NCBI GenBank assembly: GCA_019661785.1
Contig: JAIFWP010000002.1
Span: 161,869-225,868, forward strand
DNA from: Candidatus Parcubacteria bacterium
GTDB lineage: Bacteria; Patescibacteriota; Minisyncoccia; Phycocordibacterales; Zambryskibacteraceae
Reading direction: 5' to 3'
Length of the DNA: 64,000 nt
Positions 3,489 through 44,254 of the stretch are shown here, in pieces. Position 1 is the stretch's first letter. Each line of letters opens with the position of its first letter. The notes under the pieces are model-generated. The model worked only from the letters and a program-made list of their open reading frames with translations, was not told the DNA's origin and made no database searches. The position numbers and the translations under genes are program-made.

Positions 3489-3827
3489 ATGAAGATTATC
3501 CTTAGACTCCTCATCTCGGCGGGAGCTATAGCTGTGGCGGTAAAGCTCCTACCCGGCGTGCATGTGAGCGGGGGATGGCAGACTTACCTCATCCTCGCTA
3601 TAGTCCTCGCGGCTATCAACTTCTTCATTAAGCCTGTTCTTTTGCTTCTGACTCTACCGCTTAGCATACTCACGCTCGGGCTCTTCACGGTTGTGCTCAA
3701 TGCTGCGCTTGTCTTCCTTGCGACAAAGATTGTCCCAGGCTTTACCGTGGACTCCTTCCTCTACGCAGTCTACTTCGGTGTCGTACTAGCAATAGTAAAC
3801 GGCGTACTAAAGCGCCTCGACGACTAG
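3489..3827 (+). CDS. YvlD / phage-holin-4_2 (PF04020-like) four-TM membrane protein
   Basis: LLPGVHVSG.W...LPLSILTLGLFTVVLNA...VPGFTVD matches the family consensus. Confidence 0.7.
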   Translation: MKIILRLLISAGAIAVAVKLLPGVHVSGGWQTYLILAIVLAAINFFIKPVLLLLTLPLSILTLGLFTVVLNAALVFLATKIVPGFTVDSFLYAVYFGVVLAIVNGVLKRLDD

Positions 3828-4127
3828 CTACCAGACCTTATATATCTCGCGGCCACCGGAGACGTACATGTCGTTCATGTCCTTCCACTTGTCCTGCTCC
3901 TCTTTGCTCACCTCAGAGTAATCCTTCTCCATCTCCTTACGCATAGCCTCTTCGAACTCGGCGAGGTTATTGTAGTTATGAATCATGATGACGCGGTGCC
4001 ATTGGCCTGTCATGTCGGTGAGTATGTAAGGACCCTTTACTGGGTCGAAGGGCATGGTCTTCATGAGCTTGGCTATCTTCGAGGCATTGCCGGGCTTACA
4101 GACGAATGTGTTGTGTACTTGGATCAT
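3828..4127 (-). CDS. Hypothetical protein (99 aa), possibly a small alpha/beta-barrel protein
   Basis: Clean ORF overlapping the next gene by 4 nt, which suggests an operon. No confident family. Confidence 0.5.
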   Translation of the reverse strand: MIQVHNTFVCKPGNASKIAKLMKTMPFDPVKGPYILTDMTGQWHRVIMIHNYNNLAEFEEAMRKEMEKDYSEVSKEEQDKWKDMNDMYVSGGREIYKVW

Positions 4128-4384
4128 CCCGTTAGAGTTAGGAAGCGCTTAATTCTATTGTTAATAAATCGTTTACCCATGCCAGATTTTAAATATTTTT
4201 CTCTGGCCCTAGCGTCATCTTCATTATGACACGCTTCGCAGTATATAACGTAAAAAGGACCACGACCTTTCGTATATGTTGACTTACCATTGTTGTGCTG
4301 CCATAAGCGCTTCCGTAAACTATTCGTGATGCCTGTGTACCACTTACCGTCTTTCTTGCTCTTTAGTACGTAGTTGTACCACAT
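4124..4384 (-). CDS. GIY-YIG nuclease family protein (UPF0213-like)
   Basis: YNYVLKSKKDGKWYTGITNSLRKRLWQHNNGK...KYLKSG matches the GIY-YIG core. Confidence 0.8.
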   Translation of the reverse strand: MWYNYVLKSKKDGKWYTGITNSLRKRLWQHNNGKSTYTKGRGPFYVIYCEACHNEDDARAREKYLKSGMGKRFINNRIKRFLTLTG

Positions 4385-4442
4385 AACAGAGTGAACTCTA
4401 ACGGGATCATAAATTGTTATTAAGAATTATTTTAGGTATGCG

Positions 4443-4625
4443 TTATGCCGGATGGCGCTCAAGGAAGTCTTCAATCATCGCTTCCTGCTTATCTTTGAAT
4501 TCCGGCAGGTTTTGCTCCTCGATAAACTTGCGGAGGAAGCCAACCTCAGCGCGGAGGGCCATGACTGTGCCTCGCTCCTCTCCAAACCGCCCGATGAGCT
4601 CTTGTATGAATTCTGGATAAGTCAT
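4443..4625 (-). CDS. Small hypothetical protein (60 aa)
   Basis: ORF only. A competing plus-strand ORF 4452..4667 looks less protein-like. Confidence 0.3.
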   Translation of the reverse strand: MTYPEFIQELIGRFGEERGTVMALRAEVGFLRKFIEEQNLPEFKDKQEAMIEDFLERHPA

Positions 4626-4700
4626 TTTAGTTTGCGAGTGCTATTAAGAGGAGTGCGATACTTATGACGGCGTAGGTGCCCAAAGTCTTAGTAAAGAGCC

Positions 4701-4940
4701 TTACTCCTTAGTCTCGTAGGCCTTGCGGACGTTAGCTTGGATAAAGTCGCTTAGCCCCTGGCCTGCTTCAGCTAGCTCCTTCATCTGCGCGACATTGTCT
4801 GCCCCGGCGCTCGCGTTCGTATACTTATATGTATAGAACCCGCTTCGGCTTGGGGTCTTGAACTTCACAATGATAAAGTCCTCGCCTATCTCATAGCTCT
4901 CGACGGGGGACTGCCCACTCACATTTTTGTATTCCTGCAT
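4701..4940 (-). CDS. KTSC-domain protein
   Basis: VESYEIGEDFIIVKFKTPSRSGFYTYKYTN...FIQANVRKAYE resembles the KTSC domain (PF13619). Confidence 0.55.
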   Translation of the reverse strand: MQEYKNVSGQSPVESYEIGEDFIIVKFKTPSRSGFYTYKYTNASAGADNVAQMKELAEAGQGLSDFIQANVRKAYETKE

Positions 4941-5028
4941 GGCTTTGGATTAACCTAATAATTCCGTCGGTACATTATAGCCCTTTGGATGGGAAAAACG
5001 GCCTATTTATGCTAAATTGGCCTTGTCT

Positions 5029-5120
5029 GGAGACGTGTCAGAGTGGTCTATCGTACCTCTTTGCTAAAGAGGTGTGCCCTTTAAAAGGCACCGACGGTTC
5101 GAATCCGTCCGTCTCCGCCA
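5029..5120 (+). tRNA. tRNA-Ser(GCU), class II with a long variable arm; CCA encoded
   Basis: Acceptor GGAGACG/CGTCTCC, anticodon arm CCTCT-TTGCTAA-AGAGG, variable hairpin GTGCC...GGCAC and T-arm GACGG-TTCGAAT-CCGTC. Confidence 0.85.
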
Positions 5121-5204
5121 AGTAGCCGTTCTTAGTGTTGAGTTGTTATCAACAGCTTTCAGTTTTTTGTCAAATAGTCGTTTTTTTCATGATAGTCTGA
5201 ATGT

Positions 5205-7046
5205 ATGCAATGGAACGAGCGACTTACGGAAAATATTATAAATGGCTGGCTTAATAAGGTAGGAATCACAGAAAAAGATGGTTTTTCTGTTGAGCAACAA
5301 CTTAGTTCTAATCCGAGGATAGAAAAACTTCTTAAAAATGCTAGTAAGTCTGGAAACGGTGTTGGAAAACCTGAGTTCATAATAACTAAAAATACTGAAC
5401 AGAATTTTATTTTAATAATTGAATGTAAGGCTGATCCAAAATTTCATGAGTCCAAAAATCACGATAAATACAAAGACTACGCAGTTGATGGAGTTCTGCT
5501 ATACGCTTCTTATCTCGCCAAAGAATTTAATGTCATTGCCGTAGCTGTAAGTGGACAAAAAGAAGCAGAAATTAAAATAGACACTTTTCTACATCCTCGA
5601 GGATCTCTTAGGGCAGCTCCCCTAAAAGAAGGTGCTAGAGGGACAGCAATAAGAGAGATTATATCCTGGACTGATTATATACGTCATGCCACTTATGATG
5701 AAAATCTGACTCGAGTACGTCGTGAAGATTTAGCCAGATTTTCCCGTGATCTTCATAACTACATGCGTGACTATGCAAAAATAACTGAAGCTGATAAGCC
5801 CTTGCTTGTCAGTGGTATTCTTATCGCACTAATGGATGATGGATTTAAAGTTTCCTATTCTAAGTATGAGGAAGGATCATTGGCGAAGAGAACATATGAG
5901 ACAGTTAGAGATATTATTAACTCCGCCCAACTCGGAATAAATCAGGAAGAAAAAAAAGATGCAATCATAAATTCTTTTAGCTTTATTAAGCATCATCCTG
6001 AATTAAAAAAGATAGATCCTGAAACTAAAGAATCGCCGTTGGCACATATAATTAAAGAGATTGATCTTGAGGTCAGACCTTTTACTGAGGATCATTATGA
6101 TTTTGATGTGATTGGAAGCTTCTATGCTGAATTTGTTCGTTATACTGGCGGAGACAAAAAAGGTCTTGGTATTGTACTAACACCCAAACATCTAACAGAT
6201 TTGTTTGCAGATCTTGCTGGAGTTAATAAGAACTCAACTATTTTAGATACGTGTGCTGGCACGGGGGGGTTTCTAATATCAGCCATGCAAAAGATGACCA
6301 AAAATGTCAGTGATCTTGAAAGAAAGAGAATTTTGAGTGATTCTCTTATCGGTATTGAACAAGAACCAAAAATGTTTGCCTTGGCGGTTTCTAACATGAT
6401 CCTGAGAGGAGACGGAAAGACTAATCTTTATCAAGGATCATGTTTTGACGAGGATATTATTGGTCCCCTACGTGGTAAGGCAACGGTTGGATTTATTAAT
6501 CCCCCTTATTCTCAAAAAGGAAAAGCACTTCATGAATGGAATTTTATTGAAACTTTGTTGGATTCCTTGCAAGAAAATGCTACAGGAATTGTTGTGGTGC
6601 CGATGTCTTTATCAATTGCTCCTCATCCGACTCGACAAAAAATTTTGATTAATCATAGGCTGGAAGCTGTAATGAGTATGCCGGATGATTTATTTTATCC
6701 AGTAGGTGTCGTGTCGTGTATTATGGTTTTCACGGCGCACAAACCGCACGATAGTGAGCCAAGGCACGAGAGTTGGTTTGGTTATTGGAAAGACGATGGT
6801 TTTATAAAGGATCGCTTACAAGGCAGAATTCCCACGTCTAGATGGCCACTGATACGCGAAAAATGGCTTAACACTTTTTCTAAAAGAGAAGTGATCCCAG
6901 GTTTTAGCGTACGCAAAAAAGTAGATGGAAATGATGAATGGTGCGCAGAAGCTTATCTAGAAACAGACTACTCTTCAATAAAAGAAGAGGATTTTGAAGA
7001 TTTAATTAAGAGATACATTTTATTTAAAACCCTTAGTAATAGGTAA
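5205..7046 (+). CDS. Type IIB (BcgI-like) restriction-modification enzyme: N-terminal PD-(D/E)xK endonuclease fused to a gamma-class N6-adenine DNA methyltransferase
   Basis: N-terminus GKPEFIIT...ILIIECKAD (PE...ECK nuclease motif). The C-terminal half has AdoMet motif I (LDTCAGTGGFL) and motif IV (NPPY). 613 aa is close to BcgIA. AT-rich codon usage. Confidence 0.75.
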   Translation: MQWNERLTENIINGWLNKVGITEKDGFSVEQQLSSNPRIEKLLKNASKSGNGVGKPEFIITKNTEQNFILIIECKADPKFHESKNHDKYKDYAVDGVLLYASYLAKEFNVIAVAVSGQKEAEIKIDTFLHPRGSLRAAPLKEGARGTAIREIISWTDYIRHATYDENLTRVRREDLARFSRDLHNYMRDYAKITEADKPLLVSGILIALMDDGFKVSYSKYEEGSLAKRTYETVRDIINSAQLGINQEEKKDAIINSFSFIKHHPELKKIDPETKESPLAHIIKEIDLEVRPFTEDHYDFDVIGSFYAEFVRYTGGDKKGLGIVLTPKHLTDLFADLAGVNKNSTILDTCAGTGGFLISAMQKMTKNVSDLERKRILSDSLIGIEQEPKMFALAVSNMILRGDGKTNLYQGSCFDEDIIGPLRGKATVGFINPPYSQKGKALHEWNFIETLLDSLQENATGIVVVPMSLSIAPHPTRQKILINHRLEAVMSMPDDLFYPVGVVSCIMVFTAHKPHDSEPRHESWFGYWKDDGFIKDRLQGRIPTSRWPLIREKWLNTFSKREVIPGFSVRKKVDGNDEWCAEAYLETDYSSIKEEDFEDLIKRYILFKTLSNR

Positions 7047-7047
7047 T

Positions 7048-8007
7048 ATGGAATTAACACCTCTAAACACAATTTTTGACATTGAGTATGGAAATAAATT
7101 CGATCTGAATAAAATGATTATTAAAGATAAAAGCAAGATAGCTTTTGTGGGGCGTACAGAAAAAAATAATGGTGTTACGGCGTATGTTGAAGAGGTGTCT
7201 GGGATAAGTCCATATGATCCAGGTTTCATAACTGTCGCTCTCGGCGGTGCAATTCTTGAGTCTAATCTCCAGCCATTCCCTTTTTATACGGCGCAGAATG
7301 TTGCAGTTTTAAAACCTAAAAATACAATGAGTGACGAAGAGAAACTTTTCTATGCTTTTGCTATTGAAGCTAACAAATTCAGATATGGCGCCTTTGGTAG
7401 AGAGGCTAATCGTTCCTTGAGAACGCTTCTTGTTCCGAAGTCTATTCCCAAGATGTTTATGAAGAAGAGTAATTTTGAACCATCTAATGAATCTATATTA
7501 TTCCCAAGGGAGGTGACATTTCCACCTACTTTATGGAAATCATTCAAGTACAAAGATATATTTGATATCCAAACTGGTATTGGTCCATTAGTAAAATCAA
7601 GAACAATCGAGAATGGAGCAGTCCCTTTTGTGTCTACAACATCTGAGAGTAATGGTTTCTCTTACTATTATGCTGGTCCTGCAAAACATGCCGCAAATCT
7701 CATAACCGTGAGTAATGATGGATCTGTAGGAGAAGCTTTCTATCAAGATAAACCATTTTCTGCCAGCTATAAGGTTAATATTTTAGCTCCAAAATTTGAA
7801 CTTAATTTGTATAGGGCATTATTTTTGAACGCGATCATTAGAAAAGAAAAATATCGTTATTCATACGGACGCAAGTGGGGACTAGATAGAATGAAGGAAT
7901 CAATAATGAAATTGCCAGCATGTCCAAATGGGAGTCCTGATTGGAAATATATGGAAGATTATATAAAGTCTCTGCCGTATACCAAGACTTTGCTCAGCTA
8001 CGTTTAA
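7048..8007 (+). CDS. Restriction-modification specificity (S) subunit with two TRD-like halves (BcgIB-like)
   Basis: Starts 2 nt after the RM gene. Internal duplication (FDIEYGNKF... / FDIQTGIGP...) and HsdS-like conserved linkers (LLVPKSIP..., IMKLPA). Confidence 0.65.
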   Translation: MELTPLNTIFDIEYGNKFDLNKMIIKDKSKIAFVGRTEKNNGVTAYVEEVSGISPYDPGFITVALGGAILESNLQPFPFYTAQNVAVLKPKNTMSDEEKLFYAFAIEANKFRYGAFGREANRSLRTLLVPKSIPKMFMKKSNFEPSNESILFPREVTFPPTLWKSFKYKDIFDIQTGIGPLVKSRTIENGAVPFVSTTSESNGFSYYYAGPAKHAANLITVSNDGSVGEAFYQDKPFSASYKVNILAPKFELNLYRALFLNAIIRKEKYRYSYGRKWGLDRMKESIMKLPACPNGSPDWKYMEDYIKSLPYTKTLLSYV

Positions 8008-8109
8008 ATTAAAGATTTTAATCTGTAATATTAAATTAAGTACATCAAATTTTATAAATTTCGAACGCCTTGAAAGATTAAAGGTTTTGTTGTAGTTTTG
8101 GTTGAATAA

Positions 8110-8976
8110 ATGACCTCACAACTTTTTCCAGAAGCAGCTCTCCCACAGTATCTTTTGGATATTTATTTCCAAGGGCCATCTTTTAACGGAATGATGGAGA
8201 TTGATTCCCTCGCCAAAGAGGTTCAAGGCTTAGAGACTGTGTTGAGAATTGCGTTGCATTCCCTGATAAAAAATAAAAGGCTTAATCTGAAAAGTGGGGA
8301 CTTGGAAATTTATGTTGAGGCATTTGAGAAGGGATCATTTCGAAAAAGAATAAAAGTTTTTAATAGGACAACAAAAGAATATGTGCCTCTAGTTAGTTTG
8401 GCAACATTAGTTGTCTTGATATTCCAAACGATCCCTCAATATAAAACAGAGGAGATAAAAACTTTGTCTCCAGAGCTAATTGCTTCAGTGAGAGATCAGG
8501 TAGTGTTAGAACTATTGCAGGATAAGAAGTTTTTGGGTGCAGCGGCTGATATTGTACAGCCTATATCGCTTGGAGGTGATATGTGCACTTTGTCTTCAGC
8601 CGTTGACAATAAAGCCGTGATTGATTCCGAAACTAGTAAGAAGTTTATTAATTTAACTGATTCTGCTGAGAGTTCAGTTGATGATGGGGAATATTATGAA
8701 GTATTGCAGGGAAGAATAAACAGGGTGGATCTGGATGCTTCAAGAAGGCATATAGGATTTAAGGTCAATAGTGAGGGAGCGACAATTGATGCAACATTTC
8801 AAAATAAGCCATCTCCCGAAGAAATGAAGTCTTTGCTTGGTGAGTGGGTGGAAATCAAAGGTAATGTTTCGTATATAGGCGGCCAAAGAAGTCATGTGGA
8901 TATCTCTGAATTTAATGTAATCAAACAGAGGCAATTTGATATGCATTCTGATCAATCAGATAATCCCAAAAAATAA
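8110..8976 (+). CDS. Hypothetical protein (288 aa) in the AT-rich island
   Basis: Long clean ORF with AT-rich composition like the RM genes. No recognizable motifs. Confidence 0.55.
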   Translation: MTSQLFPEAALPQYLLDIYFQGPSFNGMMEIDSLAKEVQGLETVLRIALHSLIKNKRLNLKSGDLEIYVEAFEKGSFRKRIKVFNRTTKEYVPLVSLATLVVLIFQTIPQYKTEEIKTLSPELIASVRDQVVLELLQDKKFLGAAADIVQPISLGGDMCTLSSAVDNKAVIDSETSKKFINLTDSAESSVDDGEYYEVLQGRINRVDLDASRRHIGFKVNSEGATIDATFQNKPSPEEMKSLLGEWVEIKGNVSYIGGQRSHVDISEFNVIKQRQFDMHSDQSDNPKK

Positions 8977-9007
8977 ATTAATATTACCGAGGTACACTTA
9001 AGCCCTA

Positions 9008-9388
9008 ATGTTTTTGAAATTCAGGCTTAGGCGGGGGAGAAAGACTATACGGCGGAGGCCGGCGGGGAAGTATTTGAAGTATAAGGAGGAGGCGAGGGCG
9101 CTGGTGCGGGCGAGGCTCGAGTACTTTAATGCCGAGTATGGCTTCAAGTGGAATCGTATTGCCATTAAGGACCACAAGTCGCGATGGGGTAGCTGCTCCA
9201 AGAAGGGGAATCTGAACTTTAACTACCGCATAGCCCTCATAGCGCCTCACCTTGCCGACTATATAGTAGTGCACGAGCTCTGCCACTTGGGAGAGCTTAA
9301 CCATTTAGTCGAGCGCTCTATGCCAGACTGGCGTAAGAGGCGAGACGAACTGATGAAGATAGGAGCCAACACTGCAAGTTTGATTTGA
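9008..9388 (+). CDS. DUF45/YgjP-family zinc metallohydrolase, C-terminal half only (likely 5'-truncated)
   Basis: SRWGSCSKKGNLNFNYRIALIAPHLADYIVVHELCHLGELNH (HExxH) matches the DUF45 C-terminus. About 100 N-terminal residues of the family are absent. The gene sits 31 nt after the island's last gene. Confidence 0.5.
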   Translation: MFLKFRLRRGRKTIRRRPAGKYLKYKEEARALVRARLEYFNAEYGFKWNRIAIKDHKSRWGSCSKKGNLNFNYRIALIAPHLADYIVVHELCHLGELNHLVERSMPDWRKRRDELMKIGANTASLI

Positions 9389-9583
9389 CCCATACGTCAG
9401 TAGGAGGATGAAAGAGAGCAAGAGACAAGTCAGGAACAAGGATGTGGTAAAGAATCAGCGCATGGTACACCTTTCAATACCCCCGAGGATGGAAGGTGAT
9501 ACAAAGAGCACAAGGACTAGGTCGAAGAAGAAGCCGGGTGAGATACACAAGCCACGGAAGGGGAAGTAGGCTAAAATGTATCG

Positions 9584-9838
9584 ATGAATATATGGCTCAA
9601 GCGTGAGTGGTATGTGGCCATGCATGGACAGCCGAGGAGCTTCCGCACTAAGAAGTGGATTGTGATACTCGTAGTCGCCGCAGTCCTCTATAGACTTCGT
9701 GGATGGGGTTTGGTCTTGTGGGTCTTTGCCCCGCTTGGACTCATTGGCATTTGTGCGCACTTCTACCTCAGGCATAAGACAGGTGGCTGGAGGAGGGAGT
9801 GGAAGTTTGTGAAAGCAATCCCTACCCCGTACGACTAA
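9584..9838 (+). CDS. Small two-TM hypothetical protein
   Basis: ORF with hydrophobic helices. The competing antisense ORF looks like junk. Confidence 0.3.
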   Translation: MNIWLKREWYVAMHGQPRSFRTKKWIVILVVAAVLYRLRGWGLVLWVFAPLGLIGICAHFYLRHKTGGWRREWKFVKAIPTPYD

Positions 9839-9855
9839 TAAGCTACAACACCCCC

Positions 9856-10302
9856 ATGTCAGAATATAAATCACAGTACAAAAACATCTTTGTGAATTTG
9901 CCCGTGAAGGATATTGGGAAGACCAGAGACTTCTGGACTAAGCTCGGCTTTAACTTCAACCCGCAGTTTAGCGATGAGAGGAACCTGTGCCTCGTCATCC
10001 ATGACAACATCTTTGCCATGCTCCTTAGCGAGGACTTCTTTAAAGGTTTTACTAAGGTAGAGATTGCCGATCCGAGGAAGGCGAACGAGGCCATAGTAGC
10101 TCTCTCGGCCGAGAGCAGGGAAGACGCAGATGGGCTCTTCAATAAAGCCGTAGCCGCGGGTGGAGTAGAGACGCGCCCAGCTGAGGACATGGGGTGGATG
10201 TACGGCAGAGCCTTCCAGGACCTCGACGGACATCAATGGGAGGTTGTGTGGATGGACATGGCCAAGGCGCCAGCGCATCCGGGCGAGGCTACCAATAATT
10301 AA
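9856..10302 (+). CDS. VOC (glyoxalase/bleomycin-resistance fold) family protein
   Basis: Internal ATG (MSEYKSQYKNIFVNLPVKD...) chosen over the track start at 9799. Beta-alpha-beta-beta-beta VOC pattern. Confidence 0.65.
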   Translation: MSEYKSQYKNIFVNLPVKDIGKTRDFWTKLGFNFNPQFSDERNLCLVIHDNIFAMLLSEDFFKGFTKVEIADPRKANEAIVALSAESREDADGLFNKAVAAGGVETRPAEDMGWMYGRAFQDLDGHQWEVVWMDMAKAPAHPGEATNN

Positions 10303-10310
10303 ACAAATAT

Positions 10311-10709
10311 ATGAATAGAATAGTCCACTTCGAGATACAGGCCGATGAGACAGAGCGAGCGGCCAAGTTCTACCGAGACGTCTTCAGCTGGGAGATAGAG
10401 AAGTATCCTATGCCTGACATGGAGTACTGGGGCGTCATGACTGCGCCGAAGGACTCTAAAGAGCCAGGCATCAACGGCGGGCTCTTGAAGCGTCCATGCC
10501 CAGCGCCAGCGCTCGGCCAAGGATTGAACGCCATGGTCTGCACCATACAGGTCGACGACTTCGACGCATATGCTAAGAAGATACTCGCCGCCGGAGGCCA
10601 GGTGGCTATGCCCAAGTTCGCTCTCCCAGGCATGGCTTGGCAAGGCTACTTTATCGACACTGAGGGCAACACCTTTGGCCTGCATCAGGCAGATGCTGGC
10701 GCTAAGTAA
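10311..10709 (+). CDS. VOC family protein
   Basis: VHFEIQADETERAAKFYRDVFSWE... and C-terminal GNTFGL. Confidence 0.7.
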   Translation: MNRIVHFEIQADETERAAKFYRDVFSWEIEKYPMPDMEYWGVMTAPKDSKEPGINGGLLKRPCPAPALGQGLNAMVCTIQVDDFDAYAKKILAAGGQVAMPKFALPGMAWQGYFIDTEGNTFGLHQADAGAK

Positions 10710-10738
10710 AAGCAGAATAATTCTAAACTAATAAACTT

Positions 10739-11170
10739 ATGGCAAAACCAAATCCAGTTGTGCACTTCGAGATGGGCTATAACGATAAGGAGAGAGCGAA
10801 GAAGTTCTACAATACTGTCTTCGGCTGGCAGATGCAGGAGATGGGGCCCGACATGGGCGGCTACGTCGTCGCTCAGACGGCAGTGACGGATGAGAAGGGG
10901 ATGGTACAGACCCCAGGCAATATTAATGGGGGCTTCTACCAGAAGACAGCAGACCCAGGCTCGCATGCGCCATCGGTAGTCATAGCAGTGGACGACATCA
11001 AGCAGGCCATGAAGGATGTAGAGGCAGCAGGAGGCAAGATTGCTGGCGCTATGGGCGCTGACGGCAAGCCATCCATGGAGCCGATGATGATACCTGGCGT
11101 TGGACTCTGGATATCGTTCATCGATACAGAGGGCAACAGGACGAGTTTGCTACAGCCAGTACAGAAGTAG
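10739..11170 (+). CDS. VOC family protein
   Basis: VHFEMGYNDKERAKKFYNTVFGWQ... and C-terminal GNRTSL; paralog of the previous gene. Confidence 0.7.
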   Translation: MAKPNPVVHFEMGYNDKERAKKFYNTVFGWQMQEMGPDMGGYVVAQTAVTDEKGMVQTPGNINGGFYQKTADPGSHAPSVVIAVDDIKQAMKDVEAAGGKIAGAMGADGKPSMEPMMIPGVGLWISFIDTEGNRTSLLQPVQK

Positions 11171-11204
11171 ATACGCCACTCCTGTTGTGCTAAGGTGAGA
11201 GTAT

Positions 11205-11624
11205 ATGAACAAAATAATCATCGGCATCGTAGCGCTTGTCATTATTGGCGTAGGGGCTTGGTACTTCATTAGCCACAAGGGCAATGGGGAGCAGATTGGC
11301 GGAGCAGTGACATCTTCTGCACCAGAGACCAAGTACACCGACCCTAAGCAGGGAGAGGTGGCTGTGGTGGGTGCCTGGGACTGCCTCGTGCGAACGGACG
11401 GAAGCGAGACGACCAAGGATAACTGTCTCTTCAGCCTTAAGGGTGATGATGGCAAGGTCTACGCTCTCGACCTCTCGAAGGTGGAGGTGATAGGCAAGGG
11501 CTCAGACAAGGCCGCGAAGATACGAGCTGTCGGTACGCTTGGCAAGAGCTCGGAGAGCGACTTGTCAGGAATCTTCAATTACGACGCAGTCCTCGCAGTG
11601 CGCGTGATACAGAGCGCGGAGTAG
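11205..11624 (+). CDS. Membrane-anchored hypothetical protein
   Basis: N-terminal TM helix; AAGGTGAG RBS. Confidence 0.55.
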   Translation: MNKIIIGIVALVIIGVGAWYFISHKGNGEQIGGAVTSSAPETKYTDPKQGEVAVVGAWDCLVRTDGSETTKDNCLFSLKGDDGKVYALDLSKVEVIGKGSDKAAKIRAVGTLGKSSESDLSGIFNYDAVLAVRVIQSAE

Positions 11625-12716: not shown

Positions 12717-13829
12717 ATGTCACTCTTTGGCTCCACTTTCGGCAACCTTTTTGGCAAGAAGGAGGTTCCGAGCGTACTCGGTGTGGACATCGGCTCCTCG
12801 GCTATAAAGATAGTCCAACTAAGGAAGAAGAACGGTCAAGCCGTGCTCGAGACCTACGGCGAGCTCGCTCTTGGTCCGTATGGCGCGTCCGCCATCGGCC
12901 AGTCGGTGCAATTGCCGACGGAGAAGATTATTGAAGCTCTCTCAGACCTTATGAAGGAGAAGGAGGTCAACGTCACAACGCGCCTCGCCGGACTCTCCAT
13001 ACCCTTCAGCTCCTCGCTCATGTCGGTCATCGAGCTCCCGGCAGTCTCCGACAAGCAGCTCGCGACCATGGTCCCTCTCGAGGCCCGCAAGTATATACCC
13101 GTACCGATAAACGAAGTCATGCTCGACTGGTCAGTTATCCCTAAGACCGACAGCAGAGACGATGACGCAGTCGCTGAAGGGATGCAAAAGAAGGTTGAGG
13201 TCCTCGTCGTCGCCATCCACAACGACACCATATCCAAGTACCAGCAGATTGTGGAGAAGACGGGTCTCCAGGCAGGCTTCTTCGAGATAGAGATATTCTC
13301 CACTATGCGCTCCGTAGTCGAGGAGAGTCTGACGCCAACTATGATAATGGACTTTGGCGCGGCGTCGACCAAGCTATACATCATTGAGCGCGGGGTTATC
13401 AAGTCATCGCACACTGTTAACCGCGGCTCGCAAGACATCACTGCGGCCATAGCGGGCTCACTCGGCATACCAGTAGAGCGAGCAGAGATGATGAAGCGCG
13501 AGGTCGGCGCAAGCGGCTCGGACCAAACATTGCGTCAGATTATTACTCTCGTCCTCGACTACATCTTTGCCGAGGCTAATCGCTCTCTCTTAGGATTTGA
13601 GAAGAAGTACAATAGGACAGTGGGCAAAGTAATACTCGTCGGCGGAGGAGCCTCGCTCAAGGGTCTAGCAGAGCTCGCCAAGAACGCCTTCAAGACCGAG
13701 GCCGTGCAAGGCAACCCCTTCGGCAAGCTATCGACCCCGGCATTTATAGAGAAGGTCCTCCGCGAGACTGGTCCTGAGTTCGCCGTCTGCATCGGCGCCG
13801 CTTTAAGGAAGCTCCAAGACGAAGGATAA
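12717..13829 (+). CDS. pilM: Type IV pilus assembly protein PilM (actin-like ATPase)
   Basis: N-terminus FGKKEVPSVLGVDIGSSAIKIVQL is typical of PilM; 370 aa. Confidence 0.85.
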   Translation: MSLFGSTFGNLFGKKEVPSVLGVDIGSSAIKIVQLRKKNGQAVLETYGELALGPYGASAIGQSVQLPTEKIIEALSDLMKEKEVNVTTRLAGLSIPFSSSLMSVIELPAVSDKQLATMVPLEARKYIPVPINEVMLDWSVIPKTDSRDDDAVAEGMQKKVEVLVVAIHNDTISKYQQIVEKTGLQAGFFEIEIFSTMRSVVEESLTPTMIMDFGAASTKLYIIERGVIKSSHTVNRGSQDITAAIAGSLGIPVERAEMMKREVGASGSDQTLRQIITLVLDYIFAEANRSLLGFEKKYNRTVGKVILVGGGASLKGLAELAKNAFKTEAVQGNPFGKLSTPAFIEKVLRETGPEFAVCIGAALRKLQDEG

Positions 13830-13834
13830 CTATT

Positions 13835-14743
13835 ATGCACTGGTTCTTTATTGCCCTGGCGGCACCGGCTTTGTGGAGTGTCTCAAACCATATTGATAAG
13901 TTTGTCATAAGCAACTATTTCTCAGGCAAGGGAGTTGGATCTCTTGTGCTTTTTACAGCTCTTGGCGGAAGTTTGGTGGCTATCCTTATAGCGATATTTA
14001 GTAATGCGTCCTTCAACCTCGGAAGCGCACATATTTTAGTCATTGCTCTAAGCGGGGCGATTCTCGTTGCTGCATTTATTCCGTATCTCCATGCGCTTGA
14101 GATTGATGAAGCCTCCTATGTTACAGCGCTCTTCCAGATGATTCCTGTGTTCGGCTATGTTTTAGCGTTTCTATTTTTAGGGGAGAATCTCAGTGTCGCT
14201 CAGACAATTGGTTCAGCCTTAATCATTGGGGCATCAATCTTCATGTCGCTCGACTTGTCTGAGCACATACGCATCAGGATGAAGCCGCTTCTTCTCATGA
14301 TGCTCTCGTCCTTGATGATATCCCTTAACGCTTTGTTGTTTAAAGTTATTGCTCTGGATGAGAGTTTCTGGGGCACGGCATTCTGGGAGTATGTAGGTGC
14401 CGGAGTGTTCGGCCTGTTGCTCTTCGTGCTGTACCCGCTCTACAGGACTCAATTTCTCGCAACTCTCACGCGAAGTCGCTTTACGGTTTTAGGGTTGAAC
14501 ACATTTTCTGAATGTTTGAACATCGGCGCGAAGTTGTTGGCCAACTTTGCGAGTCTCCTTGCTCCTCTTGCCCTCGTGTGGGTCGTCAACGGTTTCCAGC
14601 CGCTTATCGTATTTCTGTACGGAGTTATTCTCACATTATTCATACCGAAATGGGGGACTGAAAATCTCAGCGCTAAAGTAATTTTGCAAAAATTGACCGG
14701 GATGGCGGTCATCTTTGTCGGAGTGGCCTTGCTCTTCGCCTAG
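13835..14743 (+). CDS. DMT/EamA-like 10-TM transporter
   Basis: Ten predicted TM helices in two EamA-like halves. Confidence 0.6.
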   Translation: MHWFFIALAAPALWSVSNHIDKFVISNYFSGKGVGSLVLFTALGGSLVAILIAIFSNASFNLGSAHILVIALSGAILVAAFIPYLHALEIDEASYVTALFQMIPVFGYVLAFLFLGENLSVAQTIGSALIIGASIFMSLDLSEHIRIRMKPLLLMMLSSLMISLNALLFKVIALDESFWGTAFWEYVGAGVFGLLLFVLYPLYRTQFLATLTRSRFTVLGLNTFSECLNIGAKLLANFASLLAPLALVWVVNGFQPLIVFLYGVILTLFIPKWGTENLSAKVILQKLTGMAVIFVGVALLFA

Positions 14744-14858
14744 AGTGTAAATACTTTTGTGCCCGCAAGCTCCAAGACGAAGGTTGACAGGTGACTAACT
14801 AAGTGCTATTACATAAGCGGATTGTTTCATCTGGCAACTTCTCACTGGAGAGTGCGTA

Positions 14859-15389
14859 ATGCGTATCCGAAGCTTTTTGGGTTCAGCCGCGCTGGTTCTT
14901 CTCGCGGCAGCGGCCGAAGGGCAGGCATTGCCTGCGGGTGTCATACTTGGCGCTGCGCAGCGTAAGGCGCAGAAGATGGCTGAGGCCGCGCCTGTGCACA
15001 GGGATACCGTGGCTGTGAAGGGCGGTCTCATGCTCGTCTGCGATGTGCAGCAGGCTGTCATAGCCGTGACCGGGTATCAGTATGCGGACGGTTCCAAGAT
15101 TCTGGCGAGTGCGTCGGCGGGCATCACCTTCCTTCTCGTTGTGGACTCGGCCGGCAAGAGGCTCACTCTGCTCTCGCCCAAACCTATCCCCGTATGGAAG
15201 AATTCCGTGTACGCGGTGACTTATCATCCGCGAAGTGCAGTCGATCCGCTCGAGCTCATCGAGATATCGTCGCTCGTGTTTGATTTGAAAAGCCAAGGCA
15301 CCATCTTCGTCAATGGTATTTTGATGGGTGCCACGAGTATCGACGCAAAGGCCGATGCCATTATCCAGAAGGGAAGGTCTTGCCGTTAA
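14859..15389 (+). CDS. Secreted hypothetical protein (signal peptide); high-GC cassette gene
   Basis: GGAGAG RBS, signal peptide MRIRSFLGSAALVLLAAAA and visibly higher GC than its neighbors. Confidence 0.55.
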   Translation: MRIRSFLGSAALVLLAAAAEGQALPAGVILGAAQRKAQKMAEAAPVHRDTVAVKGGLMLVCDVQQAVIAVTGYQYADGSKILASASAGITFLLVVDSAGKRLTLLSPKPIPVWKNSVYAVTYHPRSAVDPLELIEISSLVFDLKSQGTIFVNGILMGATSIDAKADAIIQKGRSCR

Positions 15390-15399
15390 GTTCTCTGTA

Positions 15400-15431
15400 C
15401 CCGCCCCGATGAAAATCGGGGCGGTTCTTCA
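15400..15431 (+). terminator. Intrinsic terminator CCCGCCCCGAT-GAAAA-TCGGGGCGG plus a T-tract (copy 1)
   Basis: A GC-rich hairpin of at least 10 bp followed by TTCTTC. An identical copy sits at 16136. Confidence 0.7.
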
Positions 15432-15520
15432 TAAATTTGATTTCTTTTATCCAAAAGCGCATAGTCAGAGCGCGGGCGAAAGATAGTACCCCGTGTGTAC
15501 CTTTAGTATAGGAGCTGACC

Positions 15521-16132
15521 ATGTCTACAGGCATGCTCGGCAGGGTGTCGCTCTCTGACCTTCAGGGACCGATGAATGATTTGATGGAAAAGTTGGCGGG
15601 GCCAAATGGTCATCGGTGGCTGAGGGAACTGAACAGATTCCTCAGGCGGCAGGGGACCTGGACCTCGCTCTTGCCTCTCGTTGTCGAGTCCGATGGCAAC
15701 TCGGGAGAGGACTACATCCGCTATCTTGCGCGTAACTGGGAGCTTAACAATCACGCCAAGCAGGCGATTCTCTCACCTGAGTTTGTCGTCACCAGAGACG
15801 TGAAGTATGAGATTCAGCTTCTGATGCGCTCTGACTTCGACGTCTTGCCCACTAGCAAGAGTGTCTATCAGGTAGCGGCGGGGCGTGGCTACAAGCCTGC
15901 GCCGCTTGAAGTTGGCCCCCTGCTCAGGAGCATGATGAGGCGGAACGATTTCAAGAAGCTCGGCATCCAATGCATCGTCGTCATGCAGCCCGAGGAGATA
16001 CTGACGGCTCGGTTCTATATCGGTATGGACGATACCCTGAGCGTGGTCGCGCCGGGAGCTGAAAAGAGATGGTCCAACGATACTGCCTGGGCGTTCGTCG
16101 CTCCGGAAGAAGATGTGTACGTGCATGCGTAA
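15521..16132 (+). CDS. Hypothetical cytoplasmic protein (203 aa); high-GC cassette gene
   Basis: TAGGAG RBS and high GC; no family recognized. Confidence 0.55.
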   Translation: MSTGMLGRVSLSDLQGPMNDLMEKLAGPNGHRWLRELNRFLRRQGTWTSLLPLVVESDGNSGEDYIRYLARNWELNNHAKQAILSPEFVVTRDVKYEIQLLMRSDFDVLPTSKSVYQVAAGRGYKPAPLEVGPLLRSMMRRNDFKKLGIQCIVVMQPEEILTARFYIGMDDTLSVVAPGAEKRWSNDTAWAFVAPEEDVYVHA

Positions 16133-16135
16133 GCC

Positions 16136-16167
16136 CCCGCCCCGATGAAAATCGGGGCGGTTCTTTG
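16136..16167 (+). terminator. Intrinsic terminator, identical 30-nt copy of the 15400 element
   Basis: CCCGCCCCGATGAAAATCGGGGCGGTTCTT repeated exactly. Confidence 0.7.
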
Positions 16168-16222
16168 TATCTGTGTATATATAGATAGAAGTATTGGGGA
16201 ATCTCTTCTATAATTAAGCTAG

Positions 16223-16951
16223 ATGCAACCCCAGTTTCAATCATCATTCATCCCTAAAGGTCCGGTAGCTACTACTGGCACGGCCACTCGTGTCTCGCAA
16301 GGCGCAGACAGGAGCCTCCTTGGCACTCTAGCTGTCCTTGTTTTCGTTATATCGGTAGTCCTCTCCGTTGGCGTCTTCGGCTATGAGAAGTATCTTGACT
16401 CGCGCATCAACGCCATGAACGGCGACCTCGCCGCCGCCCGCGCGACGCTTAAGCCAGAAGTCATCACGGACATCTCCCGCCTCGACCAGCGACTCGTAGC
16501 AACGCAGGTGCTCCTCAATAAGCACATCGTCCTCTCGCCACTCTTCGACTACCTTGAGAACGCCACCTTGAAGGGTGTGCGCTTCACCGAGTTCCAATAT
16601 CTCACTACAGAACAGGGCCTCACTCTCAACATGCGCGGAGAGGCTAAGGGATACGCGGCAGTCTCCTTGCAGGCACAGGTCTTCAACAAGAGCCCTTACA
16701 TGAAGCAGCCTATCTTCTCTGACCTCGACCTCGACGACAAGGGCAATGTGACCTTCTCCTTCAAGGTGAAGCTCGACCCAAGCATCGTCTCGTACAAGAA
16801 GCTCGTTAACGATGTGCCTGCTGTCACACAAGTGCTCGTACCTGTCTCTCAGCCAGTGACAACTGTTGCGACTACGACTACCGATAAGACAACACAGAAG
16901 CAGACAGCCGCTTCGACCACAGCTTCAACAACGAAGAAGACAAGCCAATAG
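16223..16951 (+). CDS. pilN: PilN-like type IV pilus assembly protein (TM plus coiled coil plus Thr-rich tail)
   Basis: Single TM helix followed by a periplasmic domain; lies between pilM and pilO. Confidence 0.6.
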   Translation: MQPQFQSSFIPKGPVATTGTATRVSQGADRSLLGTLAVLVFVISVVLSVGVFGYEKYLDSRINAMNGDLAAARATLKPEVITDISRLDQRLVATQVLLNKHIVLSPLFDYLENATLKGVRFTEFQYLTTEQGLTLNMRGEAKGYAAVSLQAQVFNKSPYMKQPIFSDLDLDDKGNVTFSFKVKLDPSIVSYKKLVNDVPAVTQVLVPVSQPVTTVATTTTDKTTQKQTAASTTASTTKKTSQ

Positions 16952-16958
16952 AAAACGT

Positions 16959-17498
16959 ATGAAAAACTCCACCTCACTCATCCTGCTCCTCATCTCAATC
17001 GGCCTCTTCTACACCTTCATCTCGCCGCATTACGATACAGTCGGCACCTTGCGCGCCCAGTCGGGTAAGTACGAAGACATCCTCGCGAGCGTCTCAGCCC
17101 TCACTGCCACTCGCGATGACCTCTCGGTGAAGCTCGCCAACATGCCTCCCACAGAGGTAGCCAAGCTCGAGAAGATACTTCCTGACAACGTAGACACAGT
17201 GAATCTCGCTATGACCTTTGACTCCATAGCCGCTCGCTATGGCATATCCATCAAGTCGGTACGTACCGTCGAGGTAAAGACTGATACAGGCACAGGCATC
17301 GTCCAGGCGAGCGCCAATCCGTATGAGAAGGTGACCGTATCCTTCTCCTTCGTATCTACGTATCCTAACTTCCGCAAGTTCATGGCTGACATCGAGCAGA
17401 GCCTGCGCATCATCGATGTGAAGTCGGTGACCTTCCAGGCTACGGACTCTGGCCTCTACGAGTATCAGGTCTCGGTCGACACCTATTGGCTAAAATAA
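16959..17498 (+). CDS. pilO: PilO-like type IV pilus assembly protein
   Basis: Internal ATG (MKNSTSLILLLISIGLFY...) chosen. N-terminal TM, coiled coil and C-terminal alpha/beta domain. Confidence 0.6.
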   Translation: MKNSTSLILLLISIGLFYTFISPHYDTVGTLRAQSGKYEDILASVSALTATRDDLSVKLANMPPTEVAKLEKILPDNVDTVNLAMTFDSIAARYGISIKSVRTVEVKTDTGTGIVQASANPYEKVTVSFSFVSTYPNFRKFMADIEQSLRIIDVKSVTFQATDSGLYEYQVSVDTYWLK

Positions 17499-17502
17499 CG
17501 AC

Positions 17503-17793
17503 ATGCAGTATATCCAAAAGAACAAGTCGATACTCATAGCCATAGCTCTCTTTGCTCTCGTTATCTGGGCTTATGGAGCTTTCATCAAAGGCCCTTCCAC
17601 GAGCGTAGCGACGAACCAATCCGCACAGAAGGTGGGCGGAGACGTGCTCGACCTCTACTCCTCGCTCAAGGCAGTGTCTCTCGACCAGACGCTCTTCTCA
17701 ACAGCTTTGTACAGGCACTTGCAGGACTTCTCCTCTGATATACCGCTACAGCCAGTCGGCCGCACGAACCCCTTTGACGTCATAGGCAGATAG
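17503..17793 (+). CDS. Small membrane-anchored pilus-cluster protein (96 aa)
   Basis: N-terminal TM helix; located between pilO and pilB. Confidence 0.45.
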   Translation: MQYIQKNKSILIAIALFALVIWAYGAFIKGPSTSVATNQSAQKVGGDVLDLYSSLKAVSLDQTLFSTALYRHLQDFSSDIPLQPVGRTNPFDVIGR

Positions 17794-17812
17794 AGTTTTA
17801 AATCACGAATGA

Positions 17813-19543
17813 ATGTCAATCCTCGACTTACTCAAAGATAAGAAGGTCATAAAGCCTGAGGATATTGCTGCCATAGAGGCTGAGGCGCAGGGGAGCGGCC
17901 TCTCTCTTGAGCAAGTGCTCGTCACTCGCGGCATAGCGCCGGAGACAATACTTGAGGCCAAGGGCCAAGAGCTCGACATACCAACGAGGAGCTTGAAGGA
18001 TTTGAACGTGCCGTCAAAAGTCCTCGGCTACATACCAGAGGAGTCGGCCGAGCACTATAAGGTTCTACCATTAGGGGTCAAAGACGGCGTACTTGAAGTG
18101 GGCATCGTCGACCCAGACGACATCGAGGCTCGCGATGCGCTCAACTTCATCTCGGCGAAGATAGGTATGCCGTACAAGCTCTTCCTCGTCTCGGCGGCTG
18201 ACTTTGGCAATGTCGCTACTCTATATAAGGGCATCACCGGAGAGGTGAACGAGGCTCTCTCCGAACTCGACACCGAACTCGCTGAGAAGCAGGAATCAAG
18301 AAAGAGCAAGCAGAAGGACAAGATAGACGAGGTCGAGCTTGGTCTGACTGAGACGAAGATTGTTGAGGACGCTCCGGTAACGAAGATTGTCGCCACTATC
18401 CTCTCATATGCTACCGAGGGTAACGCGTCAGATATTCATATCGAACCTCAACACGACAACATCCGCGTGCGCTTCCGAGTTGACGGTGTGCTTAATACTT
18501 CGCTTGTGCTGCCTATCAAGGTCCACTCGGCTGTGGTAGCGCGCATCAAGATACTCTCGAACATGCGCCTCGACGAGAAGAGGAAGCCTCAGGATGGCCG
18601 CTTCAGCGCGAAGATGGAGAGCCGCCGCATAGACTTCCGCGTATCGACCTTCCCAACTTACTATGGCGAGAAGGTGGTGATGCGTATCCTCGACCAAGAG
18701 AAGGGAGTTAGGAAGCTCTCTGAACTAGGCCTCTCGAAGGAGAACCTGGCTCTCATCCTCGACGCCATCAAGCGCCCTTACGGGCTCATCCTTATATCCG
18801 GCCCGACAGGCTCCGGCAAGTCGACCACTCTCTACTCCATGCTTAACGAGGTCGACAAAGACCACAGTAACGTGCTCTCTCTCGAGGATCCGGTGGAGTA
18901 CAACATGGCCGGCGTGAGCCAGTCGCAAGTCCAGCCGGAAATCGACTACACCTTTGCCACAGGACTTCGTACGACCTTGCGCCAAGACCCAGACATCATC
19001 ATGGTCGGTGAGATACGAGACAAGGAGACGGCTCAGCTCGCCATACAAGCGGCGCTTACCGGACACTTGGTGCTCTCGACCATACACACGAACAACGCTC
19101 TCGGCGTTATCCCGCGCCTCATTGACATGGGCGTCGACCCTTACCTCATAGCTCCGACTCTCATACTCGCCATGGCTCAGCGCTTGGTGAAGACTCTCTG
19201 CGAGGGCGGCGGCAAGGCCATCCCGGTCGAGGACTCTATCAAGCTCATGCTCGACAAGCAGTTTGCCGACTTGCCGCCGGAGTTCAAGAAGTCGATACCC
19301 TTCGGCAAGGAGGTCTACGAGCCGTCACCAACTGCTACCTGTCTCTCCGGTGTCGCTGGACGCACTGCAGTTATGGAAGTGCTCGCCATGGACAAGGATA
19401 TTGAGCAAGTGATACTCAAGAATCCGACCGAGCCTGAGCTCATGAAGATAGCTCGCGCCAAGGGCATGCTCACTATGAAGGAGGACGCTATCTTGAAGGC
19501 CTTCCAGAAGGTCATTCCATTCGCTGAGGTAAATACGCTATAA
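17813..19543 (+). CDS. pilB: Type IV pilus assembly ATPase PilB (GspE family)
   Basis: N-terminal GSPII-E domain; Walker A GPTGSGKSTTLY; Asp and His boxes. Confidence 0.9.
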   Translation: MSILDLLKDKKVIKPEDIAAIEAEAQGSGLSLEQVLVTRGIAPETILEAKGQELDIPTRSLKDLNVPSKVLGYIPEESAEHYKVLPLGVKDGVLEVGIVDPDDIEARDALNFISAKIGMPYKLFLVSAADFGNVATLYKGITGEVNEALSELDTELAEKQESRKSKQKDKIDEVELGLTETKIVEDAPVTKIVATILSYATEGNASDIHIEPQHDNIRVRFRVDGVLNTSLVLPIKVHSAVVARIKILSNMRLDEKRKPQDGRFSAKMESRRIDFRVSTFPTYYGEKVVMRILDQEKGVRKLSELGLSKENLALILDAIKRPYGLILISGPTGSGKSTTLYSMLNEVDKDHSNVLSLEDPVEYNMAGVSQSQVQPEIDYTFATGLRTTLRQDPDIIMVGEIRDKETAQLAIQAALTGHLVLSTIHTNNALGVIPRLIDMGVDPYLIAPTLILAMAQRLVKTLCEGGGKAIPVEDSIKLMLDKQFADLPPEFKKSIPFGKEVYEPSPTATCLSGVAGRTAVMEVLAMDKDIEQVILKNPTEPELMKIARAKGMLTMKEDAILKAFQKVIPFAEVNTL

Positions 19544-19550
19544 TACTCAT

Positions 19551-19940
19551 ATGAAGAAGGCCTACACAGTGCTCCTAGTAGACGATGACAAATTCCTCCT
19601 GGAGATGTATCAGAAGAAGTTCGACAAGTACGGCATCAAGGCCGAGATGTGTGTTGGTCCAGAAGAAGCTCTAGGCAAGCTCCGTGGAGGCGCCATCTAC
19701 GACATACTCGTCTTCGACATCATCATGCCCAGCATGGACGGCATTGAACTCCTAAGGACCGTGAAGAAAGAGAAGCTCTCTCCCCAGGCCATAGTAGTCA
19801 TGCTCACGAACGAGAGCGGCTCCGAGAGGATAGAAGAGGCCAAGACTCTCGGCGCAGCGGGATACATAGTCAAGGCAACCTCCATACCTTCGGAGGTGGT
19901 CGAGGAGATTATCAAGATTGCCGACGCTAACGCTAAGTAG
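19551..19940 (+). CDS. Single-domain response regulator (CheY-like receiver)
   Basis: LLVDDD...DILVFDIIMPSMDG...AAGYIVK. Confidence 0.8.
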   Translation: MKKAYTVLLVDDDKFLLEMYQKKFDKYGIKAEMCVGPEEALGKLRGGAIYDILVFDIIMPSMDGIELLRTVKKEKLSPQAIVVMLTNESGSERIEEAKTLGAAGYIVKATSIPSEVVEEIIKIADANAK

Positions 19941-19951
19941 GATATTTATAC

Positions 19952-21013: not shown

Positions 21014-21025
21014 ATATAAGTACCA

Positions 21026-42948: not shown

Positions 42949-43045
42949 GTTAGTGAAATTAAAATCTAATTGCTGTTAATCTCGACCCTGCACGGAAAGA
43001 CGACGAGCTATAATCGACCTTACATTTTCTTATGGTGTAATTAAC

Positions 43046-43905: not shown

Positions 43906-43906
43906 G

Positions 43907-44083: not shown

Positions 44084-44254
44084 GTGTAGATTATAGCACT
44101 GACAATGAGAGGTTAAACAGTGATAAGTAGGAACAGAACGAGGAGAAGAATGCCTGGAACCATTTATCTGTGCACAAAATTATTGCGTAATATTGCTCTG
44201 ATAAATGATAGAATGTTGTCATAAGTACCATTATTAAATTAACTACCAACATAT

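Follow-up and report, generated by a model that had tools for sequence, protein, structure and literature searches.

A 3.9-kb low-GC island lies at positions 5121-9007 of a 64,000-nucleotide (nt) stretch of a Candidatus Parcubacteria genome (GCA_019661785.1, contig JAIFWP010000002.1, positions 161,869 to 225,868; hereafter the window, numbered from its first letter), between a tRNA-Ser(GCU) gene and a gene of the DUF45/YgjP-like metallopeptidase family. With considerable confidence, we regard the interval between these two genes as a defence hotspot, the island as a foreign cassette carrying a BcgI-type restriction-modification (RM) pair and an RM-linked accessory gene for a 288-amino-acid (aa) protein, and the DUF45 gene as a native neighbor. 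The interval is anchored on the left by the tRNA gene (5029-5120, forward strand; detected by ARAGORN and by Rfam RF00005 at 45.2 bits) and on the right by the DUF45 gene (9008-9388, forward strand, 126 aa). Between them, all on the forward strand, are the genes of the RM subunit, a nuclease-methyltransferase fusion of 613 aa (5205-7046), of the specificity (S) subunit of 319 aa (7048-8007), and of the 288-aa protein (8110-8976). The four open reading frames (ORFs) of 613, 319, 288 and 126 aa were found exactly where an earlier note, made from the letters of this DNA, had placed them.

The composition of the island differed sharply from that of its surroundings. The GC content over 5121-9007 was 0.366 versus 0.521 in the remaining window, and relative to 1-kb windows outside the island (mean 0.522, standard deviation 0.026) the drop corresponded to about 6 standard deviations, with change points near 5230 and 9030. 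In the three island genes, the GC content at third codon positions (GC3) was 0.28, 0.30 and 0.33; of eight further genes scored in the flanks, seven had values of 0.61-0.75, and only a GIY-YIG ORF at 4124-4384 fell lower (0.44). Both edges are sharp: the left one falls at the 3′ end of the tRNA gene and the right one at the ATG of DUF45, which follows the end of the cassette after a gap of 31 nt. The AT-rich stretch described in the earlier note, beginning directly after tRNA-Ser and ending at about 9000, was thus reproduced by GC content, GC3 and change points, and the GC and codon-usage checks proposed there, done here with GC windows and GC3, showed the region to be non-uniform and the island foreign. 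The island is horizontally acquired from a low-GC donor, which was probably another Patescibacterium. The 613-aa and 288-aa proteins were identical to NCBI entries (locus tag KW800_01655 for the latter), and exact-sequence look-ups of the RM and DUF45 proteins of the window matched no record. A promoter scan gave 13 hits against 12.6 expected and, being at chance level, was uninformative on operon structure.

To see the same interval in another genome, we turned to the closest DUF45 homologue with a long contig around it; its surroundings, in GCA_019658995.1 (L114), are syntenic with positions 1-22,000 of the window. The flanks of the two genomes encode proteins that are 55-83% identical, and the blastn identity is 68-77%. 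The tRNA-Ser(GCU) gene of L114 is orthologous, including the upstream TATGCTAAAT element; it is inverted relative to DUF45, and homology stops at its 3′ end. Low-GC cargo stands on both sides of this inverted tRNA gene (L114 7001-10405). The interval between tRNA and DUF45, on the 5′ side of the tRNA gene, encodes a DpnII-MboI-type endonuclease (1.9e-41) and a D12 Dam-type methylase (1.3e-20), and beyond the tRNA gene, on its 3′ side, is an HEPN_AbiU2-like gene whose match (9e-6) falls just below the Pfam cut-off. GC3 of these three cargo genes was 0.29-0.30 versus 0.61-0.73 for their neighbors, and that of the L114 DUF45 gene was 0.64. In both genomes the cargo ends 0-31 nt from the DUF45 start (window 8977-9010; L114 9990-10003), and in L114 the stop codon of the methylase gene overlaps the ATG of DUF45 (TAATG). 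DUF45 may be transcribed by read-through from whichever RM system is inserted.

Because gene order in the interval is not conserved and the cargo differs in L114, this one comparison supports a variable defence hotspot between tRNA-Ser(GCU) and DUF45. The alignment with a related genome suggested in the earlier note thus gave an interval carrying other cargo, and its view that the region is a defence hotspot rather than a classic integrative element gained from the different low-GC RM system and the HEPN-like gene found in L114, which likewise has no integrase. CRISPR is largely absent from bacteria of the candidate phyla radiation (CPR), whose defence is believed to depend on compact RM systems. 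For this group, the two genomes make a clean example of a defence hotspot, in which the same tRNA-Ser and DUF45 flanks enclose unrelated RM cargo with no integrase.

A foreign insert that starts right at a tRNA 3′ end also calls to mind a decayed integrative element, that is, a genomic island or prophage that entered the 3′ end of tRNA-Ser by means of a tyrosine integrase and has since lost the integrase and one att site. The low-GC DNA of L114 likewise abuts the tRNA 3′ end, which fits such an origin. However, no integrase-like or recombinase ORF was found within 3500-11500, and the tRNA 3′ end was not repeated anywhere in the 64-kb window even when up to 3 mismatches were allowed, so that both absences recorded in the earlier note hold over these ranges. 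Moreover, the RM cargo of L114 lies on the 5′ side of the inverted tRNA gene and yet abuts DUF45, which means that the tRNA 3′ end is not the sole junction. We therefore consider an integrative element improbable. In the hotspot that we prefer, cargo would most likely turn over through recombination in the conserved flanks and not through site-specific integration. A few kb from the hotspot, both genomes carry a type IV pilus block encoding PilM, PilO, two T2SSE ATPases, T2SSF and a response regulator (window 12717-21400, L114 12858-20405), which may have a bearing on how CPR bacteria take up DNA.

The right edge of the interval requires separate consideration, since the earlier note had read DUF45 as a truncated gene, the remnant of an older RM locus. 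The 126-aa product matches Pfam PF01863 at 2.9e-29 over profile positions 108-205 of 207, and contains the HExxH zinc-binding motif as HELCH (aa 89-93, 9272-9286). To place it among its relatives, we took the best 80 genomic relatives, all from Patescibacteria and with identities of 62% or less, together with the 11 closest homologues (62-81% identity). The latter are 126-134 aa long and can be aligned from Met1 onward, the basic N-terminus included. Pfam positions 1-107, which are missing from the window protein, are likewise missing from all 11 of them and from about half of the 80 relatives, whose ORF lengths fall into two groups, one of about 111-158 aa (approximately half) and one of 170-222 aa. 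A match confined to the C-terminal half of the Pfam model is a trait of the whole clade, and with a GC3 of 0.67 the gene is compositionally native. We conclude that the window DUF45 is a natural short form that lies outside the cassette and was not cut by it.

The rival account, in which DUF45 is a C-terminal stump left when the present cassette replaced an earlier Type I RM locus, draws on the partial Pfam match, on the cassette stopping only 31 nt before the DUF45 ATG, and on the neighborhood of other DUF45 genes. An hsdR gene (about 910-970 aa) was found among the two upstream neighbors in 7 of the 80 loci (L034, L049, L052, L056, L073, L077 and L089). Judged by ORF size, these HsdR-linked loci have the long form of about 190 aa, and the short-form loci have heterogeneous neighbors. 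The association of DUF45 with Type I RM that the earlier note had pointed to thus exists, but it belongs to the long form. In addition, L114 has an intact DUF45 of 134 aa beside a different RM system, and no coding remnant of the N-terminal half was found upstream in any frame. Together with the native GC3 and the full-length alignment of the nearest homologues, these results make the stump hardly credible. The short DUF45 genes of Patescibacteria are thus a natural form and not pseudogene stumps, which corrects a tempting misreading.

Two further observations concern DUF45. The window copy has lost, in frame, six conserved residues (SxxFWx) right after HELCHLGELNH, with the junction at 9304/9305 (9299-9310). 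These residues are kept in 29 of 29 aligned homologues, and the loss, seen in the window copy only, could represent early decay or an assembly artefact. We also considered DUF45 as a general flank of low-GC islands and rejected this idea, as an upstream GC dip was present in just 2 of 64 loci.

We assign the first two genes of the cassette to the BcgI-type, Type IIB RM systems because of full-length profile matches, invariant catalytic motifs, the order of domains, an S subunit with two target recognition domains (TRDs), and the lack of an ATPase. The 613-aa RM subunit matched the REBASE-derived PADLOC model REase_MTase_IIG (PDLC03608) with aa 7-609 aligned on profile positions 10-610 of 614 (E = 2.8e-113), and three sister nuclease-methylase models of PADLOC matched as well; Pfam N6_Mtase (PF02384) covers aa 301-606 only. 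In the AlphaFold2 model (mean predicted local distance difference test score 83.4), a nuclease domain, a helical connector, a Rossmann-type methylase and a lone C-terminal helix follow one another. The N-terminal PD-(D/E)xK-type nuclease domain occupies aa 1-150 (5205-5654), with P56-E57 at 5370-5375 and E73-C74-K75 at 5421-5429, and its predicted topology is alpha-beta-beta-beta-alpha-beta, with PE starting one strand and ExK ending the next in the model. The connector (aa 155-312, 5667-6140) is modeled as entirely helical. The gamma-class N6-adenine methyltransferase core (aa 328-545, 6186-6839) contains motif I, DTCAGTGGF, at aa 348-356 (6246-6272) and motif IV, NPPY, at aa 432-435 (6498-6509); motif I precedes NPPY by 76 aa, with no TRD between them. 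The lone helix at aa 594-610 (6984-7034) is expected, by analogy, to dock on the conserved regions of the S subunit.

Conservation was examined in an alignment of 39 homologues with 61-69% identity. On the nuclease side, P56, E57, F58 (the PEF motif, aa 56-58), E73, C74 and K75 were invariant and E31 was nearly so; on the methylase side, D348, G352, T353 and F356 of motif I and N432, P433 and P434 were invariant, and Y435 was nearly so. The joining of a nuclease motif (PEF...ECK) to a gamma-class N6-adenine methyltransferase, proposed in the earlier note, is thus upheld. Structural likeness pointed in the same direction: the HsdM structure PDB 2okc matched at 3.5e-15, and a profile alignment paired aa 214-380 with residues 248-428 of the BsaXI RM subunit (E = 2.8e-8), whose connector comprises residues 193-348 (PMC11997821).

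The S subunit matched PADLOC Specificity_II PDLC03594 (7.4e-54) and PDLC03591 (5e-28), and Pfam Methylase_S matched it in two stretches (1.4e-25), its TRD halves being located at approximately aa 6-125 and 163-309. Only one base separates the stop codon of the RM gene (TAA, 7044-7046) from the ATG of the S gene at 7048. No helicase or ATPase domain was detected by Pfam or PADLOC in the island proteins or flanking ORFs, which sets the pair apart from the ATP-dependent translocases of Types I, III and ISP, and no HsdR-like ORF, as expected of Type I RM, was found in or near the island. The BcgI-like Type IIB assignment of the earlier note is therefore accepted. BcgI and BsaXI serve as models for the expected complex, in which one S subunit would carry two RM subunits and a bipartite site would be recognized. 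Each half-site would be methylated at one adenine with S-adenosylmethionine; unmethylated DNA would be cut in both strands on either side of the site, in a reaction that would need Mg2+ but not ATP.

NCBI labels the 613-aa protein and its homologues as 'N-6 DNA methylase' or 'SAM-dependent methyltransferase', and its N-terminal domain showed no significant match to a named nuclease family. Both facts would suit a pair that only methylates, namely a Type I-like orphan of M and S subunits with a non-catalytic N-terminal domain, serving epigenetic regulation or acting as an anti-restriction decoy. Against this, the PE...ExK residues are invariant in the 39 homologues and lie on the expected strands of the predicted core, the match to the REBASE-derived nuclease-methylase profile spans the N-terminus, and the counterpart E/D/ExK residues in BsaXI are essential for cleavage (PMC11997821). 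A methyltransferase without nuclease activity is therefore very unlikely, and we retain the BcgI-type pair.

The pair itself is ordinary, a member of a well-known, abundant and mobile family, with nothing new in kind. Homologues of the RM subunit numbered more than 7,000 at E < 1e-20 and are common in Patescibacteria. The RM and S genes also occur together on conjugative or mobilizable plasmids of Actinomycetota, Bacillota and Pseudomonadota, the RM subunits being 46-49% and the S subunit 38% identical to those of the window, the latter over the full length of the partner gene of a plasmid RM homologue. In two of these plasmids, Pseudarthrobacter plasmid pC (L115, 3992-6815) and an Escherichia coli IncK2/Z plasmid (L116, 3995-5884), the pair adjoins relaxase genes and is annotated just as 'N-6 DNA methylase' and 'hypothetical protein'. 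A second architecture was seen among homologues with 62-68% identity (P0037, P0041, P0049 and others), which are about 785-795 aa long and have one Methylase_S TRD fused to the C-terminus; this fused form occurs alongside the 613-aa one, for which a separate S subunit supplies two TRDs.

The 288-aa RM-linked family is the sole non-routine part of the island. The earlier note had called this ORF an orphan, which proved incorrect: it belongs to a rare conserved family that is linked to RM loci, with 32 homologues among 5.8 billion proteins, none of them annotated, and 89 representative clusters among 1.84 billion in an exhaustive profile search. The family shares the motifs GPSFxGxMEI, AFEKGSFRK and GRINRVDLDAxxRHIGFK. 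The window protein is acidic (isoelectric point 5.3), with a hydrophobic helix at aa 91-110 (8380-8439) and a C-terminal oligonucleotide/oligosaccharide-binding (OB) fold at aa 190-272 (8677-8925). A catalytic role for the DLDA motif of the OB domain was considered, but the motif is not conserved in distant members, and the idea was rejected for this reason. No recognizable catalytic domain or toxin motif was found in the protein, and sequence and profile searches of PDB with the family gave nothing significant.

When 61 members were scanned against named models, 26 matched NCBIfam LAPAL_fam (NF053583; best 3e-22), 26 PHROG 3243 (best 8e-20), 15 PADLOC PDC-S42 (best 2.1e-17) and 5 Pfam DUF7946 (best 4.7e-05). 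One member, P0170, matched PDC-S42 over aa 18-208, and the window protein, a distant relative, matched LAPAL_fam at 1.7e-6 with 27.7 bits, below the cut-off of 60. The PDC models derive from a 'guilt-by-embedding' screen, which looked for genes lying inside Type I RM, BREX and DISARM loci (bioRxiv 10.1101/2024.01.29.577857). The names 'PDC-S42' and 'DUF7946' were absent from the searchable literature and from searchable supplements of that paper, and the searchable literature held no experimental data on the family.

The genomic surroundings of the 288-aa homologues were compared in ten distinct contexts. The gene lies directly downstream of an RM gene and in the same direction in five of them: it follows the Type IIB pair in the window, a Type II methylase and endonuclease pair in L009/10, and hsdM, with a 4-nt overlap, in three independent loci (L001-4, L096 and L097). 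In two of the latter (L001-4 and L096), further genes and then hsdS come after it, so that it stands between hsdM and hsdS. In a sixth context (L005/6), it comes after a Type ISP enzyme with one gene, a PIF1 helicase, in between. Two more (L007/8 and L011/12) have a DNA methylase within two genes, which brings the contexts with a DNA methylase or RM gene at that distance to 8 of 10. In the other two, the homologue is found between CYTH and HEPN-Toprim genes (L013/14) or has no evident defence neighbor (L015). No constant partner gene was found downstream in the contexts examined. We conclude that the 288-aa gene forms a module of its own, in association with RM loci.

As to its role, a single-gene second-line defence or abortive-infection module is the most likely on the evidence of context, and is our best guess. 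In such a module, a nucleic-acid ligand would be bound through the C-terminal OB fold, and the N-terminal domain, with its conserved hydrophobic helix, would be the effector. In a tentative extension, the family may represent an uncharacterized single-gene immune module, found mainly in CPR/Patescibacteria, that plugs into RM loci of any type (I, II, IIB or ISP), as a second line of defence, with an OB fold that would sense infection, or the failure of RM, through a nucleic-acid signal, and an N-terminal domain that would bring about growth arrest or membrane damage.

It is also possible, although doubtful, that the gene has no part in defence, and is either a hitch-hiker of mobile or phage origin, of the LAPAL/phrog_3243 type, or a regulator or accessory of the RM enzyme such as a restriction modulator. 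The 26 of 61 members that match LAPAL_fam, a family named 'putative phage structural protein', and phrog_3243 are in line with a phage origin; two of the ten contexts show no RM, and the protein is acidic and has no recognizable catalytic domain or toxin motif. The search for phage relatives gave a different picture, as tblastn with the window protein and three distant members found no match in 50,697 phage records, and IMG/VR viral contigs gave no confirmed match; tblastn of one member against plasmids also found none. The 4-nt overlap with hsdM in three independent loci is operon-like, the family accompanies four mechanistically different RM types, which speaks against a regulator dedicated to a single one, and neighbors in the non-RM contexts, including HEPN-Toprim, M78/DUF4411 and CYTH, are typical of defence islands. 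The hitch-hiker or modulator nevertheless keeps some weight, given the LAPAL and PHROG links and the lack of a recognizable effector domain. With the defence module as the preferred role, the family offers a concrete candidate for an accessory defence gene embedded in RM loci: it is rare, well conserved and confidently modeled, has an OB fold, and follows four kinds of RM.

Several points weigh against the account given above. The hotspot has been observed in one syntenic relative, and two broader scans gave no other syntenic genome: among the 80 DUF45 loci, tRNA-Ser(GCU) was nearby in 0 of the 60 scanned for tRNAs, and a metagenome scan with the 79-aa protein of the left flank returned 16 loci, none of which, among those scanned, had a tRNA nearby. 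For the RM subunit, the nuclease region alone gave no significant match in PDB and Pfam, where PD-(D/E)xK families appeared below threshold only, and both the two-sided cutting and an (RM)2S stoichiometry would follow from membership of the family. For the 288-aa protein, the match of the window copy to PDC-S42 is weak (E = 1.7e-4, aa 16-96), PDC-S42 itself being a candidate, and distant relatives match an NCBIfam 'putative phage structural protein' and a PHROG of unknown function. Furthermore, its ten contexts were picked by the size of the contig, and some of the homologues are close to each other.

Some other features of the window were observed beside the hotspot. The GIY-YIG ORF that was exceptional in GC3 (4124-4384, minus strand, 86 aa, Pfam 6e-15) has a GC content of 0.40 and a GC3 of 0.44 versus 0.50-0.52 and 0.61-0.75 in its neighbors, and is exactly bracketed by a 17-nt inverted repeat (4123-4139 / 4394-4410, 94%); it has no counterpart in L114. 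This region (4123-4410) looks like a separate small mobile insertion. A milder low-GC patch at 43000-44350 (0.32-0.46) contains, on the minus strand, a 201-aa alpha/beta-hydrolase-like ORF (43046-43651) and an 85-aa hydrophobic ORF (43648-43905), and no defence genes are apparent in it. Directly downstream of DUF45, at 9799-11170, are consecutive ORFs of 167, 132 and 143 aa, of which the first matches Pfam Glyoxalase/VOC (1.2e-09) and the last is 55% identical to the single Glyoxalase-type gene of L114.

Compared with known restriction systems, the cassette is closest to BcgI, a Type IIB enzyme made of an A (RM) subunit of about 637 aa and a B (S) subunit of about 341 aa, whose group includes BveI, Hso63250II and HpyUM and has the layout of R domain, connector, M domain and C-terminal helix (PMC11997821). 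The window pair shares with it the two-gene organization, an RM subunit with nuclease, helical connector, gamma-class N6-methyladenine methylase and lone C-terminal helix in this order, the lack of an ATPase, and an S subunit of about 320 aa with two TRDs; its subunits of 613 and 319 aa are close in size. This likeness was judged from the described architecture and from REBASE-derived PADLOC profiles, not from the BcgI sequence, and unlike the BcgI-group comparators the host is a CPR bacterium. BsaXI, also Type IIB, has an RM subunit of 916 aa and an S subunit of 476 aa (cryo-electron microscopy structures 8w0p, 8w2p and 8w2q); the window RM subunit is 300 aa shorter and lacks its C-terminal 'knob' and 'paddle', and the S subunit is much smaller. 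Relative to the Type I core, HsdM2-HsdS (2okc, 5ybb, EcoKI and EcoR124I), the window system has no HsdR and carries a nuclease fused to the N-terminus of M.

For the 288-aa protein, the nearest named relatives are PDC-S42, NF053583 LAPAL_fam, PHROG 3243 and DUF7946, which apparently overlap and whose profiles have 292-302 positions, similar to its length. Its homologues are embedded in Type I RM operons, as were the genes by which the PDCs were defined, although the window protein itself matches these models weakly and partially. In context it also resembles PrrC and RloC, latent anticodon nucleases that are embedded in Type I RM loci and guarded by the RM enzyme: it is a single gene located between hsdM and hsdS or after an RM system, and has a predicted nucleic-acid-binding module. 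The likeness to PrrC is one of context only, as the 288-aa protein has neither an ATPase nor a nuclease domain and shows no similarity in sequence or fold.

Finally, core defence hotspots with conserved genes or tRNAs on either side have been described for Pseudomonas and Vibrio. The present case differs in that two genomes were compared, that the tRNA gene is inverted between them, and that the lineage belongs to the CPR. It resembles those hotspots in that conserved flanks, here tRNA-Ser and DUF45, surround foreign and mutually unrelated defence cargo in two related genomes.

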